A stretch of DNA of 64,000 nucleotides from an uncultured Candidatus Rokubacteria bacterium (GTDB lineage Bacteria; Methylomirabilota; Methylomirabilia; Rokubacteriales; DASRDR01), in the NCBI GenBank assembly GCA_963708025.1, contig CAVPSB010000031.1:224001-288000 (forward strand). Direction: 5' to 3'. Both the position numbers and the translations under genes were made by a program. A model generated the notes under the pieces. That model ran no database searches, was not told the origin of the DNA, and saw nothing but the letters and a program-made list of their open reading frames with translations. The stretch's first letter is position 1; each line of letters begins with the position of its first letter. Shown piece after piece: positions 41,566 to 50,373 of the stretch.

Positions 41566-43416
41566 CTGAGCTCGGCGCCGGAGCCCGGCGCCCGCCGGGC
41601 CCAGGTCGTGGTCGGGCTACCCGTCCCCCGCGTCTTCAGCTATTCCGTCCCCCCGCACCTGGCGGCCGGGCTCGCCCCGGGCCACCGGGTGCGCGTGCCG
41701 TTTCACGGCCGGGCCCGGGCCGGCGTGGCGGTCGAGGTCGCGGACGGGGAGGTCGCCGGGCTCGAGCCGGTCGAGGCGCTTCTCGATCCGGTCCCGGCGC
41801 TCACCGAGCCGCTACTGGCCCTCGCGCGCTGGGCCGCCATCGAGACCGCCAGCGCCTGGGGCGAGGCCGTCGCGCGCGCCCTGCCGCCGTCGGCCCGTCC
41901 GCGCGGCCCGGCGTCGCTCCCGGGAGACCCGCCGCCATCGCCGCCGGGGCCGCTCGTCGTCGGCTACGGCGGCGGGCGAGCTCGCCTGGTGGAGGCCGCG
42001 GTGCGGCGGGCGCTCGACGACGGCCGAGGGGCGCTGGTCCTCGCTCCGGAGATCGAGACGGCGGCCGCCTGGGCCACGGTCCTCGAGCGACTGGTGGGCG
42101 AGCCGGTGCCCTGCCTCACCAGTGACGCGAGCGCCCGCCGGCGGTGGGAGGTCTGGTGGGCCTTCCGGCAGGGCGCCATGCGTGTCGCGGTCGGCACGCG
42201 GGTCGCCGCGTTCCTGCCGGTTCGCGCGCTGGGCCTCACGGTCGTCCTCGACGAGCACGACCCGACGCACAAGGCGGTCGACGTGCCGCGCTGGCACGCG
42301 CGGGAGCTGGCGATCGGCCGCGCGCGCATCGAGGGCGGGGCCTGTCTGCTTGCCAGCGCCACGCCGAGCCTCGAGAGCTGGGCGCGCCTCCAGGCCGGCC
42401 AGGCGACGGCCGAGGAGGCGAAGACCGACGGGTGGCCGGTCGTCCACCGAGTCGACCTCCGGACTGGCGCCGGCGCGGGTTGCCTGTCGCCCGAGCTGCG
42501 GGAGGCGGTGCGGGCAGCGCTCGCCGCCGGGCAGTCGGTGCTCCTCCTCCTGAACCGCCTGGGTTACGGTCGCGCCCTCGGCTGTGGAGACTGCGGCGCC
42601 GTCCGTCGCTGCCCCCGCTGTCGGGTCGCCTTCACGTACCATTTCGGCACGCGCCTCCTGGCCTGCCGGCTCTGCGGCGAGCGGGAGCCCGCCCCGCGCC
42701 AGTGCGAGCGCTGCCGCGGCCGGCGCCTCCAGGCGCTCGGCTGGGGGACGGAGCGGCTCGAGGCCGAGGCGCAGGCGACCTTCCCCGGGGTCCAGGTCGC
42801 GCGCTACGACGGCGAGCTGAGCCCGGAGCGGGCCATGGCGGTCCGCGACGCGTTTCGCGCGGGTCAGGTGCGGGTGCTCGTCGGGACGCAGATGGCGCTC
42901 CGGCTGGGCGCCGGGGCCCCGGTCGGCCTGGCCGCCCTCGTCCTGGCCGACGCGAGTCTGCATCGGCCCGACTTCCGGTCGGGCGAGCGGACGTTCCAGC
43001 TCGCCTGGCACCTGGCCGAGGCCGTGGCGCCGGGAGGGAGCCTGTGGCTCCAGTCCTACTATCCGGACCACCCGGCGCTGGAAGCCGTGGCCCTCGGCGC
43101 CCGCGAGCGATTCTACGAGCCCGAGTGGGCGGACCGCCGAGAGCTCGGGTATCCGCCCGCGCGCCGGATGGCCCGGATCGTCGCCGAGGGCGCCGACGCC
43201 AGCCGGCTGGCGACCGACCTGGCTGGCCGCGCCCGGGCCGCCGGACTCTCGGTCCTCGGGCCCGCCCGGATGGCGGCCGGCCGGTTGCAGCTCCTGCTGC
43301 TGGGCGGTGACGAGCTGCCGGCCGCCGTGGCGGACACCCTCGAGCCGCTTCGCGGCCGGCGCCGGGTGGGCTCGGTCCGGCTGACGGTCAACGTCGATCC
43401 GGTGGAGCTCTCCTGA
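41566..43416 (+). CDS. priA: Primosomal protein N' (PriA), short form with degenerate helicase motifs; start uncertain (CTG 41566 or GTG 41608)
   Basis: N-terminal FSYSVP..GHRVRVPF, LAPEI, SATPSLES, NRLGY plus four CxxC pairs, GTERL, PDFR and ELGYPP. Confidence 0.85.
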   Translation: MSSAPEPGARRAQVVVGLPVPRVFSYSVPPHLAAGLAPGHRVRVPFHGRARAGVAVEVADGEVAGLEPVEALLDPVPALTEPLLALARWAAIETASAWGEAVARALPPSARPRGPASLPGDPPPSPPGPLVVGYGGGRARLVEAAVRRALDDGRGALVLAPEIETAAAWATVLERLVGEPVPCLTSDASARRRWEVWWAFRQGAMRVAVGTRVAAFLPVRALGLTVVLDEHDPTHKAVDVPRWHARELAIGRARIEGGACLLASATPSLESWARLQAGQATAEEAKTDGWPVVHRVDLRTGAGAGCLSPELREAVRAALAAGQSVLLLLNRLGYGRALGCGDCGAVRRCPRCRVAFTYHFGTRLLACRLCGEREPAPRQCERCRGRRLQALGWGTERLEAEAQATFPGVQVARYDGELSPERAMAVRDAFRAGQVRVLVGTQMALRLGAGAPVGLAALVLADASLHRPDFRSGERTFQLAWHLAEAVAPGGSLWLQSYYPDHPALEAVALGARERFYEPEWADRRELGYPPARRMARIVAEGADASRLATDLAGRARAAGLSVLGPARMAAGRLQLLLLGGDELPAAVADTLEPLRGRRRVGSVRLTVNVDPVELS

Positions 43417-43902
43417 TGCCAATCAGGAGTCTCGCGTTTCGCGTCGAGGCGCGCTGGCCGATCCCTGGGGCCCGCGCCGCCTCCGCCCGAGTCCGGGACG
43501 CCGACGCAGGCGTGAGTGGACCGGAGCCGTCCTTCGGAACAGAGCGATTGACGCGATTCGCCTCTCGGTCATGGGTGAGGCTCTCAGCACGACCATGATC
43601 TACACTAATCTACACTCACGTTCTGAACCGCGCCCGGGCGCGGTCCGAAGTCCGGCGGACCGGAAGTTCCGCACATGACGCCATCGCCCTCGGCTGGCGC
43701 CGCGCATCGTCTGACCAGACTCGACGGTTCCGCAGAGCACGGACGGCTTCCGCACGACGGCGTGACCTAAGCTGTGGAAACTCCACGTTGAGGTTTCCGG
43801 TCGATTCCGAGCCCTACGCGGCTGCTACACTGCAGCGCACGCTGCGTCACCGTTTCTCGACGGTTCCGCCGAATTCACGTTAGCCCGCTTCAGGAGCACA
43901 TA

Positions 43903-44469
<567 letters not shown>

Positions 44470-44591
44470 AGTCTATGATTCCCAGGTCGTCGTTCCTTCT
44501 ACATCGGGCCGCCAGCGGTCGCTTGGCGTGTCGCACTTAGCATGCGAATTCGCGGAAGCGGGCTAACACTTATCAGGCCCCCGGTTGTCAA

Positions 44592-45094
44592 GAGGAGACA
44601 CCGGTCCGTTCGCGGGAGCGGGAGGGTTCCCGCGTGACGAGGCGGCCCCGTTCGGCGCAGCGAGCCGTGCGCTGACTTGATTTCGAAGGCGGCGTCAGAC
44701 CACGTGGTCTGCACCAAACACTTATTGACGCTCAATCTGGCGACCGGACAGCCGTCGGGTCCCCAGAGCGGAGAGGGCATCTCCGCGGCCTAGAAACTCA
44801 TCGGTGCCCTCCTGCCGGCCGACTCAATGCGGGCGGGCTCTGGCGCAAGACCAGTCCCAGTTAGCACGCAGCTCGGGGGAGGGGCAGCCCACAGCGCTCG
44901 GGCCGATAGGGCGCCGAGAGGAAGGTCGAGCGGGCACGGCGTCCAATCAACGCACCGGACTCCGGGACATGCACGGCCCACATGCCGGCACGCGGTCGCG
45001 GCCGCAGGAGACGACGCGGCATCACGGTCGGGCTCAGTCCCCGGGCGGGTCCAGTTAGACGGCAGGCTCATCCGTGCCCCTCGAGCGCAAGCGG
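44592..45094 (-). ncRNA. Candidate bridge/seek RNA region of the IS (exact ends unknown)
   Basis: About 500 bp non-coding downstream of the transposase, as in the IS1111 group; contains a 9-nt match to the IS end junction and CUAAC attC-like motifs. Confidence 0.5.
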
Positions 45095-46291
45095 TTAGCC
45101 GGTGGCGGTCATGACGGCCTCCGGGGGATTGGCGGTGGGGACAATGGACCGTGGCTTCCGAGCCCCGCGCCGCCGGGCGCCGGCGATCGCCGGGTCCAGC
45201 GGAGCGTCGGGCTCGACCTCGGCGCGCACCGGCGGCGCCGGGGTGGTGGGCAGGGGGAAGAAGCGGGTCGCATCGAAGGCCTGCTCGCGGTGGAGCATAT
45301 AGTAGATGGCCCGCGCGAGCTTGTGGGCCAGGATGGTGAGCGCTTTGGCCTTGCCGTGCTGCTGGGCGAGGCGAGCGACGTACCGCTGGGCCGCGGGATT
45401 CTTGCGCAAGCTGAGGACGGCGGCCTCGGAGAAGGCCCACTTGAGATGGACGTTGCCGATCTTCTTGCCGGAGTATCCATAGTGCTTCCCGTCGGACTGC
45501 TTGGCGCACTTGACGAGCCGGCAGTAGGAGACGAAGTCCTGGACGCGCGGGAAGCGGTGGATGTCGTGGATCTCGTAGAGGAGCACGAGCGACAGGATCT
45601 TGCCGATCCCCGGCACGGAGCGGAGGCGGTAGAAGGCGTTGACGTCGTGGACCTTGGCGCTGCGGGTGAGATGCAGCTCGAGGTCGGTGAGGAGCCGATC
45701 GTAGTGGTCGAGGAGGTCGAGGTTCGTCTCGATGCTCTTGCGCACCTCGGGATCGGCAAACTGCTCGGCCACGTCGGTCCGGTTGGCTTTGTAGGCAATC
45801 TTCTTGCCGAAGGTGGGCAGGATGTACTGGCTGGTGGTGTTCTGGATGTGGGTCAGGAGCTCGGCGCGCTGGCGCATGAAGTGGCACCGCCGGCGCAGCA
45901 GGTCCCGGGTGGCCCGCATCTCGCGCGGGTAGACGTAGGCCATCGGCAGCATACCGCCGCGCAGCAGCACGGCGATCTTGTGGGCGTCGATCTTGTCGTT
46001 CTTGGCCTTGCCGCCGTGGATCGCCTTCATGTACAGGGCGTGACCGAGGACGAAGGCGATCCCCTCCTGCGCGCAGAGGTCGGCGACCCAGTACCAGGTG
46101 AAGATGCACTCGACGGCCACCACGATGTCCTCGCGGTATGCCGCGATCGTGGCCAGCAAGTGCTCCGGGGTGGCGGGGCCATTGCGGTGGACGCGCACCT
46201 TACCCTCGGCGTCCAGCACGCAGATGTACATCCGTCGGGCGTGCAGATCGATCCCACAGTAGTATCGGTGCTGCGCAGTGTAGAATCTCAT
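45095..46291 (-). CDS. IS110-family DEDD transposase/recombinase
   Basis: YCGIDLH, VAVE, KNDKIDA, SVPGIG, SYCRL..SDGK and GNVHLKWAF motifs; AGGAGGAG RBS before the ATG at 46291. Confidence 0.95.
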   Translation of the reverse strand: MRFYTAQHRYYCGIDLHARRMYICVLDAEGKVRVHRNGPATPEHLLATIAAYREDIVVAVECIFTWYWVADLCAQEGIAFVLGHALYMKAIHGGKAKNDKIDAHKIAVLLRGGMLPMAYVYPREMRATRDLLRRRCHFMRQRAELLTHIQNTTSQYILPTFGKKIAYKANRTDVAEQFADPEVRKSIETNLDLLDHYDRLLTDLELHLTRSAKVHDVNAFYRLRSVPGIGKILSLVLLYEIHDIHRFPRVQDFVSYCRLVKCAKQSDGKHYGYSGKKIGNVHLKWAFSEAAVLSLRKNPAAQRYVARLAQQHGKAKALTILAHKLARAIYYMLHREQAFDATRFFPLPTTPAPPVRAEVEPDAPLDPAIAGARRRGARKPRSIVPTANPPEAVMTATG

Positions 46292-46380
46292 CCAGTCTCC
46301 TCCTTGCCCCGGCGGGGCGGTGTTGTTTGGCCGCAATCACCTTACCCTGACGTGTGGCAAGGGGGGGCCTGGATGAGGAT

Positions 46381-46438
46381 CAACTCGCTCCAGCCGACCC
46401 CTCGCTGCGCTCGGGGCGGCTGAGCTCGGCCGTTAGCG
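46381..46438 (+). other. attC site of cassette 1 (3' part; its R'' GGCTAAC is at 44561-44567)
   Basis: CAGCCGACCCC..GGGGCGGCTG stem; R' GTTAGCG at 46432. Confidence 0.85.
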
Positions 46439-46453
46439 GGCTGAAGGTGTCGC

Positions 46454-46933
46454 GTGGTTGATCGTGCAGACGAAATGCTGGCCCGCATTGCCGGCGCGAT
46501 CGTGCCGCCTGCGGTTCGACAGCAGACGGAGCATGCGGCTCTTCACGACCTATACGCGGAGATTCCGATCAGATTCCCGGTTCTCTACGAGGACCTGATC
46601 CTTGGGTATCGGTGGGAAGCTGGTGCGGAACTCGGCTCGTTGGAGCTTCTCGCGAACCCAATGGGGCATGCATCGCTGGCAGGCCTTCTGGTATCGATTC
46701 GCTACGATCCGCACCTGGCGGCGGCCTTGCTGCCCGCGAGCCTCGTGCCGTTCGCGCGGCCAGCCGGCGGGAGCTATGACCCAGTCTGCTTCAGGAAGAG
46801 CGCGGGCGTACGTGACTGCGAGGTTGTCCAGATCGATCACGAGAGCATTCTCTGCAACCACAAGATCAAGGTCACCGCGGTCCTTGCCCCGAGCTTTCGG
46901 AGGTTGGTCGAGAATGTGCTGTCAGCCCGCTAA
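46454..46933 (+). CDS. Hypothetical cassette protein (possibly SMI1/KNR4-like), cassette 2
   Basis: The TAA stop lies inside the inverse core CGCTAAC; YDPVCF..VVQIDHE resembles SMI1/KNR4 C-termini (weak). Confidence 0.6.
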   Translation: MVDRADEMLARIAGAIVPPAVRQQTEHAALHDLYAEIPIRFPVLYEDLILGYRWEAGAELGSLELLANPMGHASLAGLLVSIRYDPHLAAALLPASLVPFARPAGGSYDPVCFRKSAGVRDCEVVQIDHESILCNHKIKVTAVLAPSFRRLVENVLSAR

Positions 46934-46959
46934 CAAGCGCGTTACGCACAACGTTATGC
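46928..46959 (+). other. Internally deleted attC (32 bp)
   Basis: R'' CGCTAAC and R' GTTATGC are only 18 nt apart, with no L boxes or stem. Confidence 0.65.
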
Positions 46960-47057
46960 GGCATTCGACGCCGTGCGGCGTATCCTGTGTGATGGCCGCT
47001 ATGGCCAGAAGCCGGCATTGGCTGCCGCTGCGGATTGACCGGCCAGGTCACCAAAGG

Positions 47058-48095
47058 ATGCCCGGCGCGATAAGAACCGCTTGCCTGGTGCTCCCGTTGT
47101 TGTTGACGTCCTCGCTCGCGGAGGCGAACGGGAAGGATATCGTTCTCGCCGATAGCCGGAGCGATGAGATAAGGAAAGGGACAGTTATCGGAAGTAAGGG
47201 ACGACATCTGAACGCCGATGACCGCATACGCGATCTCCTCGGCCACCCAGCCTTCGCCGGTTTCGCGAGGCTGCTGTTGCCGTGGGATGGCCGTAGCTAT
47301 GACCAAGCCATGCGCCTGAGCGATATCGGCTCGCTCCTGCCGTATCACAGCCACGTGGATCCTAAGACGGTGGTGGGCGCACTCAATCGCATGATCGACG
47401 ATGTAAATAGCGGTCACGCCGTGTTCTTCCCGTTCTACAGCGAAGAACAGAAGCAGAAGCAACCCGCACGCGAACATACAGGTTTGTTCTTCTTCCGCGG
47501 AAAGCCCAGTGCTCCCTTCGCCGTGATATCCCCCGGCGGTGGCTTCTCCTATGTTGGGGCCGTCCACGAAGGGTTCCCCTATGCCAGCGAAATCAGCGCC
47601 ATGGGCTACAACGCTTTCGTGCTGCGATATCGCGCAGGCTATGGCGGCGCAGTGGCCACCGAGGATCTAGCTGCAGCCATCTCCTACATCTTCCGCAACG
47701 CGAAGGCGCTCGGCGTCAGCGTCCGAGACTACTCCCTTTGGGGAAGCTCGGCCGGCGCAAGGATGGCGGCTGCCATCGGTTCGCACGGCGTTGCCGCCCA
47801 TGGTGGCGACATGATTCCAAAACCGTCAGCGGTCGTGATGGCCTACACAGCCCATTCAGATCACTCGTCCGCTGAGCCTCCGACCTTCGTCGTGGTCGGC
47901 GAACAGGACGCAATCGTGCCGCCGGCTTCGATGGAAAGGCGAATTGCGGCCCTGCGCAGCGCAGGAACAGAGGTGGAGTACCATAAGTATAGAAATCTCG
48001 GTCATGGCTTCGGGCCAGGAACCGGGACCAGCGCCGAAGGCTGGATCGCGGACGCCGTTCGGTTCTGGGAAAAGTTCATCACCCAACGGAACTGA
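47058..48095 (+). CDS. Exported alpha/beta hydrolase, cassette 3
   Basis: Signal peptide; PGGGF oxyanion motif, GSSAG nucleophile, GEQD and GHGFG motifs. Confidence 0.85.
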   Translation: MPGAIRTACLVLPLLLTSSLAEANGKDIVLADSRSDEIRKGTVIGSKGRHLNADDRIRDLLGHPAFAGFARLLLPWDGRSYDQAMRLSDIGSLLPYHSHVDPKTVVGALNRMIDDVNSGHAVFFPFYSEEQKQKQPAREHTGLFFFRGKPSAPFAVISPGGGFSYVGAVHEGFPYASEISAMGYNAFVLRYRAGYGGAVATEDLAAAISYIFRNAKALGVSVRDYSLWGSSAGARMAAAIGSHGVAAHGGDMIPKPSAVVMAYTAHSDHSSAEPPTFVVVGEQDAIVPPASMERRIAALRSAGTEVEYHKYRNLGHGFGPGTGTSAEGWIADAVRFWEKFITQRN

Positions 48096-48255
48096 TGCGC
48101 CGGATGCCCCGCTGCTCCGTCTGTTTACGCGGCTATTCAACCGCTTCCAATGCCGGTGGCGTCAACTCGCATCTGCGTGTCCCGTCCTTCCCCAAGCAAA
48201 ACATGTCTGCTTTGGGCGAAAGTGGATAACCAGTGGCTGCCTCAACCAAAATGCC

Positions 48256-48333
48256 GCATAACTTCCGCATGCACCTGACCGGCTACAGCGGGCTTCGCCC
48301 GCTTCCGCCGGCAGGTGATGCGGGGCGTTAGCG
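48256..48333 (+). other. attC site of cassette 3
   Basis: GCATAAC-TTCCG-CATGCACCTG...CAGGTGATGCGG..GTTAGCG with a central GCGGGCTTCGCCCGC hairpin; 78 bp. Confidence 0.88.
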
Positions 48334-48368
48334 CGCATTCGATTAAGGCCGGTGGATAGGGGTGGGGC

Positions 48369-48650
48369 GTGGCCTACGTCTTCGAATGGGACGCGGCAAA
48401 GGCGATCGCGAATGTCCAGAAGCATCGTGTCACGTTCGACGAAGCGTCCACGGTCTTCGGCGACCCGCTGGCGTTGCTAATGCCCGATCCGGATCACTCG
48501 GAAGGCGAGGAGCGTTACCTGCTCCTCGGGATGTCAACTCGTCAGCGGCTCTTGGTGGTAGCCTTCTCAGAGCGCCTACCCCAGACGCGGCTCATCTCAG
48601 CCAGACGGGCGACCCGACGAGAGCGGAGGCGATATGAAGCGAAGAGCTAG
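48369..48650 (+). CDS. BrnT-family toxin (type II TA), cassette 4
   Basis: FEWDAAKA..N..KH.V.F.EA..VF.D, EER and RLISAR.A motifs. Confidence 0.9.
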   Translation: MAYVFEWDAAKAIANVQKHRVTFDEASTVFGDPLALLMPDPDHSEGEERYLLLGMSTRQRLLVVAFSERLPQTRLISARRATRRERRRYEAKS

Positions 48651-48882
48651 GGGCGGTAACGGAGCAGCCGAGCGCGACACACTGCGGCCTGAGTACGATT
48701 TCACTCGAGCTGTCCGCGGTGCAACTGCAGCCCGGTACGCCGAGGGCGCCAATATCGTAGTCGTCGATCCCGCGGTCCTCGACGTGTTCCCAGACGGAGC
48801 GTCGGTAAACGAGGCGCTCAGGGCACTGGCACCCGTCATTCGGCGAGGTCGGCGTGGCGTGCGCCGGCGGCGAAGCGCCTGA
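48634..48882 (+). CDS. Cognate antitoxin (BrnA-like), cassette 4
   Basis: Overlaps the toxin gene; LRPEYDF..RG..YA..VFPD..SVNEALRAL. Confidence 0.8.
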   Translation: MKRRARGGNGAAERDTLRPEYDFTRAVRGATAARYAEGANIVVVDPAVLDVFPDGASVNEALRALAPVIRRGRRGVRRRRSA

Positions 48883-48933
48883 CTTCGGCATGCAGCCGAC
48901 GCCTTCGGCCGCGGCTGACGCCGATCGTTCGGC
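48877..48933 (+). other. attC site of cassette 4
   Basis: GCCTGAC-TTCGG-CATGCAGCCG...CGGCTGACGCCGA-GTTCGGC; 57 bp. Confidence 0.75.
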
Positions 48934-48986
48934 GGGCAAGAAGCACCCGTGAGTGGGGCTCGGTACAAGCGCGAAGGCCAGGTGCC

Positions 48987-49544
48987 ATGACACTTGAACG
49001 CATTGAACGCTATGTCATCGAGCCGAGTGCTCATGGCGCCGTCCTGAGAATGCGCCAAGGCCGGCGTGCCCTGGGCGTCGCGTTCTTGTCACTCGCCGTT
49101 TTGCTCGTGAGCTGGTGGTTCGGGCCGTATGAACCACGGCCTGGTTCGGACTGGGCGCTATCGGATTCGTTTTACTGGCTTTGGTCCGGCTTTTTTTCGC
49201 TGGGCTTCATCTTGGGACTGCTTGGCGCCTTGTACCGAGAGAATTGGACCATCAGCGCGCAGGATATCGTCGTGACGAGATCGGTCGGGCCCTGGCGCAG
49301 GACTCGCCGCGTCTCGAGGGGTCGCTCGGTAGGGATTCGCGTTGAGATCATCACGGGCGGAGGCGATGGGCCGATCTTCCCATACCAACTCCGCTTCTTG
49401 GATGCTGAGCAGAAAGATTCGGGACTTCGGATTGAATTGCAACTGACCCGCAGCGTGGATCAGGTTCTCGAGGCGTTACGTCCAGTGCTGGCATTGGAAG
49501 TCGATGACCGGAGGAAGAGCTACCGAACAACCGGATGCAGCTGA
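48987..49544 (+). CDS. Hypothetical two-TM membrane protein, cassette 5
   Basis: Two hydrophobic helices; the ORF fills the space between two attC sites. Confidence 0.65.
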   Translation: MTLERIERYVIEPSAHGAVLRMRQGRRALGVAFLSLAVLLVSWWFGPYEPRPGSDWALSDSFYWLWSGFFSLGFILGLLGALYRENWTISAQDIVVTRSVGPWRRTRRVSRGRSVGIRVEIITGGGDGPIFPYQLRFLDAEQKDSGLRIELQLTRSVDQVLEALRPVLALEVDDRRKSYRTTGCS

Positions 49545-49646
49545 CGAGCGCCCTCGCTGCGGCCCCACGGGGACGGAGGAGGGGCACTCCGCGTGCTCGC
49601 CCTTCGGCGAGCACCGGGCGCTCGCAGCTGATCCGGGGTGTTCGGC
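49522..49646 (+). other. attC site of cassette 5
   Basis: ACCGAAC-AACCG-GATGCAGCTGACGAGCGCCC...GGGCGCTCGCAGCTGATCCGG..GTTCGGC; 125 bp. Confidence 0.85.
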
Positions 49647-49710
49647 TCCGAGGACCAGACCAGAGGGAGGTGAGTCTCGACGCGGCAGGGTCCGGCCCGG
49701 AATACGGCCA

Positions 49711-49797
49711 ATGACAAGGCAGGCGATCCTCTTCGGTTGCGATGGACCACGCATCGGTCTTGTCACTCTCGGCGTCGCCGACCTTGAAAGAGCCTGA
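49711..49797 (+). pseudogene. Remnant of a VOC/glyoxalase-family cassette gene
   Basis: PRIGLVTLGVADLERA* matches the N-terminus of VOC proteins and then stops. Confidence 0.55.
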
Positions 49798-49851
49798 GTC
49801 GGGTCGAGCTCCTGAGGGTACAATAGGTCGGCAAGGGAGAGGGGACGGCCC

Positions 49852-50373
49852 ATGGCGATCCTTCCGGTCCGGCTCTATGGAGACCCCCTGCTTCGCCGGC
49901 GCGCCGAGCCGGTTCGGGAGGTCACGCCCGAGATCGACGCGCTGATCGACGACATGATCGAGACGATGTACGACGAGACCGGGATCGGGCTCGCTGCTCC
50001 GCAGGTCGGCTGCGGCCTCCGCCTCCTGGTGGTGGACGAGGGGAAGGGCGTGGCGCGGGCGTACCTGAACCCCGTCGTCGTGGAGCAGAGCGGGCAGGCC
50101 GTCGCCGAGGAAGGCTGCCTCTCCCTGCCCGGGATCTTCGCCGACGTGGCGCGGGCCGAGTCGGTGGTGGTGGAGGCTCGGGACCGGGCGGGCGCCCCCA
50201 TCCGCCGCCCGGCGTCGGGCCTCCTGGCCCGGGTCTTCCAGCACGAGATCGATCACCTGGATGGCGTCCTCTTCATCGATCGCCTGGACCGCGTCACGCG
50301 CGACCGGATCAAGCGCCGGATCAAGCGCCACGGGTTTCCGGAGGACGTCCCCGCGGGCGCCGCGGCCCTCTAG
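49852..50373 (+). CDS. def: Peptide deformylase
   Basis: GIGLAAPQVG, EGCLS and QHEIDHLDG motifs. Confidence 0.96.
   Translation: MAILPVRLYGDPLLRRRAEPVREVTPEIDALIDDMIETMYDETGIGLAAPQVGCGLRLLVVDEGKGVARAYLNPVVVEQSGQAVAEEGCLSLPGIFADVARAESVVVEARDRAGAPIRRPASGLLARVFQHEIDHLDGVLFIDRLDRVTRDRIKRRIKRHGFPEDVPAGAAAL

Follow-up and report, generated by a model that had tools for sequence, protein, structure and literature searches.

The window analysed in this study, a stretch of 64,000 nucleotides (nt) on contig CAVPSB010000031.1 of an uncultured Candidatus Rokubacteria bacterium, contains an insertion sequence (IS) that splits an integron attC site. The element occupies positions 44569-46380 on the minus strand (1812 bp), with its left end at 46380 and its right end at 44569. 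Our results indicate that it is an IS110-family element with an IS1111-like layout that recombined into the R'' box of the attC at a 2-nt core (TG in the IS orientation), most likely by a bridge-RNA/seekRNA mechanism. Judged from the sequence, its non-coding region appears to carry strands matching both target strands around the core, as well as strands matching the element's own ends (the donor), the donor match being thinly backed by independent contrasts.

In many bacteria, mobile genes are stored mainly in integron cassette arrays, and the cassettes become frozen and fused when an element splits their attC sites. The seekRNA-guided insertion of IS1111-type elements into attC is already known from clinical integrons, and the element described here belongs to a second, very widespread lineage that appears to do likewise in environmental cassette arrays, with a different crossover point. 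This lineage provides a natural data set in which four putative guides and both handshakes can be read from the sequence. In addition, an extra conserved loop is of interest for the engineering of bridge recombinases, and one relative (L074) seems to have been retargeted naturally.

Structure and target of the element

The boundaries of the element were set by the rejoined attC, by a second copy in the same genome that is 86% identical (contig C18, L002:1515-3353), and by end motifs common to its relatives. CA is found at both flanks (44567-44568 and 46381-46382), with no duplication beyond the core. Deleting the IS and one CA joins GGGCTAACA to ACTCGCTCCAGCC...GTTAGCG, that is, the R'' box to L''...L'-R', and restores the attC, in agreement with a preliminary description of this DNA that placed the element in an attC split at a CA core. 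In the IS orientation, the left attC part forms the right target flank, TG^TTAGCCC (the caret marks the crossover). The bottom strand of the rejoined attC folds into one long hairpin with both boxes paired at its base (dG -19.3); its z score of -1.70 is weak, and two neighbouring attC sites (48250-48332 and 49522-49646) fold at z scores of about -5. With the boxes, the hairpin and the cassette-array setting all present, the insertion target is an integron attC.

The preliminary description had also noted subterminal inverted repeats and about 500 bp of non-coding DNA downstream of the transposase, and both features were recovered. A perfect 9-bp repeat lies 5 nt (right) and 9 nt (left) inside the tips, and 526 nt separate the stop codon from the right tip, the start codon being 89 nt away from the left tip. 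The repeat covaries among relatives, the variable left-end base beside AGGCC being complementary to the right end in 48/48 relatives scored. The tips are conserved as well, with AT(A/C)CTCATnnAGGCC at the left end and GGCCTnATA(A/G)G at the right end. The transposase contains the Pfam domains DEDD_Tnp_IS110 (PF01548, 7.3e-15) and Transposase_20 (PF02371, 2.3e-18), scores 211 bits against NCBIfam NF033542, 'IS110 family RNA-guided transposase' (cut-off 140), and is matched along its entire length by the IS621 recombinase, whose solved structure is in the PDB (E 1.4e-9). Among 50 relatives, conservation of residues D15, E61, D99, D102 and S266 is at least 98%. Both domains, the catalytic residues and the short core place the element in the IS110 family.

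A TTGACA near the right tip (Table 1) is a candidate -35 element of a promoter that would be formed only at the circle junction and would face the left end. Junction promoters of such an arrangement are described for the IS110 and IS1111 families in a passage of a review. A promoter scan of the linear sequence found no sigma-70-like site, and all four terminator-like sites were located on the plus strand.

A scan of one genome per species yielded 533 relatives of the transposase, of which the best 80 (58-86% identity) were kept. Together with the two copies of the own genome, 82 elements were examined. Both ends were located in 56, and the other 26, with one or both ends not located and many of them on short contigs, were left out before any counts were made. 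Rows with doubtful end calls (L049, L067, L080 and L052) or outside the length range of 1500-1900 (L022 and L045) were dropped, and 50 elements were aligned for the non-coding region. The boundaries of the relatives were fixed by copies inside one genome. The best 80 of the 533 relatives span at least 14 named phyla, including Thermodesulfobacteriota, Pseudomonadota, Acidobacteriota, Nitrospirota, Binatota, Myxococcota, Gemmatimonadota, Planctomycetota and others, and the hosts mostly belong to uncultured soil and groundwater phyla.

These relatives have one target in common. TG precedes the left end in 51 of the 52 relatives with a located left end. The right flank (n = 47) starts with TG (33), GG (10), AG (3) or CG (1), the next bases are TTAG (20), TTGG (8), TTAT (5), TTAA (5), TTCG (4) or others (5), and the left flanks share ...GTCGGCTGCAGCGnnTTG. 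In most relatives, the shared flanks can be read as L'' and R'' of an attC on the bottom strand, ...GCGnnTTG^TTAGGC. In a duplex-energy test of the rejoined junction, the upstream 124 nt beat the downstream 124 nt in 34/42 cases, with z below -2 in 18/42, so that about half of the sites form clear hairpins; the others are degenerate sites or off-target insertions. The expectation that other copies would also lie at attC sites is borne out by this common target and by the C18 copy, which has CA and attC-like flanks. The coding region of the C18 copy contains 13 indels; 11 disrupt the frame, and almost all are insertions of a single base, which reflects either decay or assembly error.

Guide strands in the non-coding region

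The approximately 500-nt 3' non-coding region of the relatives consists of three conserved modules, with about 430 nt conserved, which are described here in the IS orientation, i.e., on the window minus strand (Table 1). When the whole alignment was analysed for mutual information, hardly any signal emerged apart from that of the right-end position and the terminal repeat, and anchored extraction of the guide strands was used instead. In this comparison of homologous copies, a covariation check that had been set beforehand, the guides track the ends and the target in the 50 aligned relatives. The earlier proposal of an RNA-guided, attC-targeting recombinase with readable donor, core and target guides thus gains support from the relatives, with some corrections. 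The guide for the left end appears to be GAUGAGUUUC (44794-44803) and not an AUCA at 44678-44681, which was present in only 10 of the 44 matchable relatives (50 searched), though its presumed DNA partner is nearly invariant. In addition, the left-target guide at 44946-44955 had been missed.

Module 1 would act as the target-binding loop. Its closing stem is paired in 87.8% of the alignment cells, compared with 64.8% after shuffling (0/500) and 39-46% with partners slid, and 171 cells changed on both sides, compared with 56 in shuffles. G-U cells occur in 12 of the 14 pairs and would be C-A on the opposite strand, indicating an RNA of the transposase strand. The 5' strand, ACG(Y)CUAAC, is complementary to the core G plus TTAG(G/A)C, with CUAAC exact in 44/50 relatives, and matched the own right flank at 6.02 of 8 positions, compared with 5.53 after permutation (0/5000). 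The 3' strand, nnnnUUG-AU, is identical to the left flank and core, and its last two bases are those with which the left end starts. It matched the own left flank at 3.16 of 7 positions (2.30 permuted, 0/5000), and contiguous runs of at least 5 were found in 12/49 relatives, compared with 3.3 expected. As an element does not inherit its flanks, shared descent is of little concern in these own-site target tests. Single relatives showed the same correspondence: the left match is 8/8 in L056, where CGAAC faces a TTCG flank; UUUAAC faces TTAAA in L035; and in L033, whose left end begins with AC, the handshake is AC.

Module 2 is a second stem-closed loop paralogous to module 1, and its stem is paired in 98.2% of cells, compared with 89.4% after shuffling and 29-54% with partners slid. 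Two CUAAC motifs, given by CCAGTTAG at 44857 and 45051, had been singled out in the preliminary description as possible alternative target guides. This sequence occurs twice in the 64 kb compared with 0.21 expected, a count of 2 being reached in 1/100 shuffles, and the motif is conserved not only in module 1 but also in module 2, where it is exact in 35/50. In the window copy, the CUAAC strand of module 2 fits the target slightly better than that of module 1 (7/8 vs. 6/8). Across the family, the 5' strand of module 2 was not site-specific in the own-site test (4.70 vs. 4.62, 1315/5000), and the 3' strand matched the own left flank above chance (2.26, compared with 1.61 after permutation, 0/5000), though less well than the corresponding strand of module 1. 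A role of this 3' strand as the left-end guide was considered and was unsupported (4.38 vs. 4.29, 313/5000).

One relative lies at a site of another kind. In a Syntrophales genome, L074:2419-4089 occupies a non-attC site (left ...GGATTTG, right AG TAGGTGT), and both of its CUAAC strands and its handshake are altered to fit this site. The module 1 guide is complementary to the flank TAGGTGT at 7/7 positions, and the handshake is now UA. L074 therefore looks like a case of natural retargeting.

Module 3 is the putative donor-binding region, arranged as a multi-loop. The IS-end junction AACACTTAT is found twice in the 64 kb (44565-44573 and 44717-44725), compared with 0.00 expected, and the second occurrence gives the AUAAGUG that had been read as donor end plus core. 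In the relatives this strand takes the form AUA(A/G/U)GUG-UU-UGG, and its variable base, which corresponds to right-end position -2, agrees with the right end in 47/50, a position that changes at least 7 times on the transposase tree. The 16-nt palindrome noted earlier adjoins this strand, and the relatives have a hairpin of different sequence at the same place. The right-donor guide gave 3.84 matches compared with 3.32 after permutation (0/5000), uncorrected for shared descent, and matched variants were found in L021 (7/7) and, with a 1-nt shift, in L012. RNAalifold returned no consensus for module 3 because the alignment is too gappy, and the hairpins of this module were read by eye only.

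Taken together, these features suggest how the element might move. The non-coding region would be transcribed on the transposase strand into a structured RNA, the unpaired strands of which would pair with DNA. Module 1 would read the target, with one strand complementary to the right flank and the other identical to the left flank, and module 3 would read the element's own joined ends, with one strand pairing with the left end. Two-nucleotide extensions would match the recombinant junctions (the 'handshake'). The DEDD/Ser recombinase would then exchange strands at the core, so that nothing beyond the core would be duplicated. The anatomy, the common target, the covariation of the guides and the RNA-type stems are shown by the sequences, from which we infer that the window copy is active and that its RNA is transcribed and bound by the transposase.

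Table 1. Positions of the element, its attC target and the modules and guide strands of its non-coding region in the window.
Feature	Position	Strand	Details
Left attC part: R'' box GGGCTAACA with core copy 1 at its end (CA, 44567-44568)	44560-44568	+	
Remaining attC: core copy 2 (CA, 46381-46382), L'', L', R' GTTAGCG (46432-46438)	46381-46438	+	
Insertion sequence	44569-46380	-	1812 bp
Right-end subterminal inverted repeat CAGGCCCCC (plus-strand letters)	44574-44582	.	Read directly
Left-end subterminal inverted repeat, complement of CAGGCCCCC	46363-46371	.	Read directly
Transposase gene, 398 codons plus stop	45095-46291 (open reading frame (ORF) 45098-46291)	-	ORF list, profiles, relatives
TTGACA, candidate -35	44586-44591	-	17 nt from the right tip; family consensus keeps CTCTTGACA
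Module 1, putative target-binding loop closed by a 10-bp stem	44923-45088	-	Stem pairing across relatives
Putative right-target guide, RNA CCGUCUAAC	45054-45062	-	Complementary to core G plus TTAG.C of the right flank, 6/8 here
Putative left-target guide with handshake, RNA GUGCGUUG-AU	44946-44955	-	Identical to left flank plus core at 6/8, then the first 2 nt of the left end
Module 2, a further loop closed by a stem and a paralogue of module 1	44802-44893	-	Stem pairing
Second CUAAC strand, RNA GUGCUAAC	44860-44867	-	Pairs 7/8 with GTTAGCCC in the window copy
Module 2 3' strand, RNA CCGCAUUG-A (nnnUUGA)	44823-44831	-	Resembles left flank plus core
Module 3, putative donor-binding region (multi-loop)	44655-44813	-	Aligned relatives
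Putative left-donor guide, core and handshake, RNA AUAAG-UG-UU-UGG	44714-44725	-	Identical to the right end, core and first 2 nt of the right flank
Hairpin (16-nt palindrome) adjoining the donor guide	44696-44711	-	Hairpin of different sequence at the same place in relatives
Putative right-donor guide, RNA GAUGAGUUUC	44794-44803	-	Complementary to left-end positions 4-9, position 1 and core G; 8/10 here

Alternative explanations and published elements

Several observations weigh against the RNA-guided insertion proposed above. No significant hairpin was found at 24/42 sites, and an exact inverted partner (R') of the junction 7-mer was present upstream in 9/42, compared with 7/42 in the control. 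The guide matches of the window copy are short and imperfect (6/8, 6/8 and 8/10), and the left-flank match covers just 2-3 nt in 29/49 relatives. The 47/50 agreement at the right end rests on few independent events, namely three well-supported contrasts, of which 2.5 go the same way and 0 the opposite way (sign test, p 0.25; three contrast pairs cannot reach significance in this test), and the donor-guide tests are uncorrected for shared descent. An Rfam search of 44300-46600 with E up to 1 returned just two chance miRNA matches. Public runs contain at most 37% of the sampled words each, and contigs from two RNA libraries and two other runs belong to relatives (90-99% alike) and cannot show transcription or RNA ends. 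In addition, module 2 is unexplained by a two-loop model.

An explanation without a guide RNA is that the internal copies of the ends and the target act as DNA, either as subterminal transposase-binding repeats or as captured attC fragments, while the protein chooses the target. The motifs are short, their conservation might stem in part from the DNA ends themselves, neither an Rfam match nor RNA in the public-run contigs speaks against it, and the relevant part of Siddiquee et al. (2024; PMC11187229) leaves open a different recognition of the ends in IS1111 and IS110. However, the loop-closing stems stay paired through two-sided changes, and the G-U pairs fit one strand only. The guides also obey the strand rule published for bridge RNAs, with one strand identical, one complementary and the core in each, and the own-site matching of the target guides is unexpected for fixed protein sites, so that this explanation seems highly improbable. 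Another possibility, which we consider somewhat doubtful, is that the mechanism operates as described and the window copy is an immobile fossil. The genome contains two copies only, one of which carries the 11 frame-breaking indels, the window copy's guides fit its own site imperfectly, and the linear sequence gave no promoter-like site. Against this, its ORF is open over 398 codons with the five catalytic residues present, and both tips, both core copies and the three RNA modules are intact. The roles of the loops might also be distributed differently, module 2 being the working target loop that forms a canonical two-loop bridge RNA with module 3, and module 1 either a redundant duplicate or a separate accessory resembling a seekRNA. 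In favour of this, module 2 is situated immediately 5' of the donor region, the place taken by the target loop in IS621. In the window copy, its CUAAC strand is the better fit to the target, its 3' strand agrees with the own left flank more often than expected by chance, and L074 changed both CUAAC strands to fit its odd target. This arrangement is nevertheless unlikely, as the 5' strand of module 2 shows no site specificity family-wide and both strands of module 1 give the stronger own-site signal.

IS1111 elements targeting attC were reportedly described in 2008-2009 by Tetu and Holmes and, in 2009, by Post and Hall. According to parts of Siddiquee et al. (2024; PMC11187229), the seekRNA of ISKpn4 and ISPst6 co-purifies with the transposase and that of ISPa25 is predicted, so this kind of element has already been published. 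The window element might then be an ordinary member of the published IS1111-attC group (ISPa21, ISPst6, ISKpn4 and ISPa25) with nothing distinct. It is similar to them in its target type, in insertion at one attC end in a fixed orientation, in its subterminal repeats, and in the non-coding region 3' of the transposase. Its top-strand guide lies 5' of the bottom-strand guide, with an overlap at the insertion point, as the same parts of that paper state for the RNA of IS1111 elements. However, Table 1 of a review gives the crossover of ISKpn4, ISPst6 and ISPa25 as GAA^CG or GAG^CG, 8 nt left of the GTTAG within which it occurs here (TTG^TTAG, in the R'' box). The IS1111 criteria, as given in the published passages, include subterminal repeats of 7-17 bp, a transposase of 330-350 amino acids (aa) and the motif GL-P----S(t)G. 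The transposase has 398 aa here, and the motif reads RLvKc.k.S.GK. In BLASTP, with IS4321 as the sole IS1111-family reference, no full-length relation was found, the alignment covering only 145 C-terminal residues with 24% identity. The published seekRNAs measure 82-172 nt, whereas about 430 nt in three modules are conserved here, and the hosts are mainly uncultured soil and groundwater phyla. Ordinary membership is thus quite improbable, the comparison with ISKpn4, ISPst6 and ISPa21 being based on published descriptions. The term 'IS1111-type' used in the preliminary description stands for the layout, with its subterminal repeats and its long downstream non-coding region (526 nt vs. 89 nt upstream), and fails for the transposase sequence.

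Similarly to IS621 (Durrant et al., 2024; Hiraizumi et al., 2024), the element combines a DEDD + Ser recombinase with a 2-nt core and four putative guides under the same strand rule, and its extensions match the recombinant junctions as 'handshake' guides. As far as the relevant passages of Durrant et al. (2024; PMC11208160) state, left guides pair with the bottom strand and right guides with the top strand, with the core in all of them, and donor guides lie in multi-loops in many IS1111 elements. In contrast to IS621, the RNA is encoded 3' of the gene and not 5', the guide order in each loop is reversed, the donor guides lie in a multi-loop, and there are one extra target-type loop and long subterminal repeats. 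A part of one report (PMC3001079) describes the group IIC-attC introns as another mobile class specialised on attC sites; unlike the DEDD recombinases, they are retro-elements and have a reverse transcriptase and a ribozyme.

The plasmid records gave a similar picture of separation. Klebsiella accounted for 2985 of the best 5000 IS4321 records, which IS4321/IS5075 saturate, and lay outside the ten commonest genera of the 823 plasmid records matching the window transposase (tenth genus: 16 records). IS4321/IS5075, of the IS1111 family, target the inverted repeats of Tn21-type transposons. They resemble the window element in their subterminal repeats, 3' non-coding region and specific, hairpin-prone target, and differ in the target itself and in the short C-terminal alignment mentioned above. 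The named elements among the plasmid matches listed were IS621, ISEc45, ISGsu4 and IS1328 only. A Pseudomonas plasmid match was considered as a source of ISKpn4/ISPa21/ISPst6 sequence and was rejected, as it is not in an integron.

The differences from the published attC elements would therefore lie in the R'' crossover, in a transposase that is not close to that of IS4321, and in the extra loop. In the literature searched for bridge RNA or IS1111 with attC, neither the R'' crossover nor a third loop is described; the supplements of the seekRNA and bridge RNA papers may already list members of the lineage. It is conceivable, but rather speculative, that the lineage gained attC targeting separately from the classical IS1111-attC group, with an R'' crossover and a three-loop guide RNA in which a donor multi-loop is accompanied by two target-type loops, the first site-specific and the second, its paralogue, carrying generic guides, and that this second target-type loop does real work. 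If so, module 2 might widen the range of attC variants or hold the flanks during excision, and natural bridge RNAs could have more than two DNA-reading loops.

Cassette array and additional observations

The split attC is located in a low-GC island (43420-49800; about 62% vs. about 75%) between priA (41608-43416) and def (49852-50373). The cassettes of the island contain genes for a RibD_C protein, an alpha/beta hydrolase and a BrnT toxin with a likely partner ORF, as well as two unknown ORFs of 159 aa and 185 aa. A genome-wide search found no integron-integrase match on the window's contig, so the array is integrase-less. The only strong match in the genome (C24:97846-98792; L083, L084) is divided between two reading frames that cover profile positions 1-191 and 192-315. 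As the match is situated at the extreme end of its contig, the attI and cassettes belonging to it were not assembled with it. Within the array, 46922-46972 is a short attC-like junction with a poor fold (z about -0.3), whose GTTATGCGGCATT is inverse to AATGCCGCATAAC, with which the next attC begins at 48250; this junction may be a hybrid or a truncated site.

Several partial or unusual forms of the element were also observed. A single metagenome contig with short sides connects the right-end region (44590) to the left-end region (46319) through 4 other letters, leaving out 1728 bp, and may represent a miniature derivative without the gene. In one Nitrospiraceae genome (L038:3825-4313), the last 244 bp, comprising the donor module and the right end, are tandemly repeated directly after one copy, and the last 244 bp of the element were also found 1.1 kb downstream of a truncated element (L037:4964-5207). 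These repeats may be footprints or partial re-insertions. L045 was considered as a short relative lacking a module and was set aside as uninformative, being truncated and containing Ns. One relative lies on a 2.8-kb contig binned as Heimdallarchaeota (L031), which is so short that a binning error is possible instead of an archaeal host. The same three modules were found in a relative with 53% identity on a Vibrio campbellii plasmid. Directly upstream of this relative lies a different IS110-family transposase gene (L089:1068-2084), adjoining an IS4 transposase in an IS cluster.

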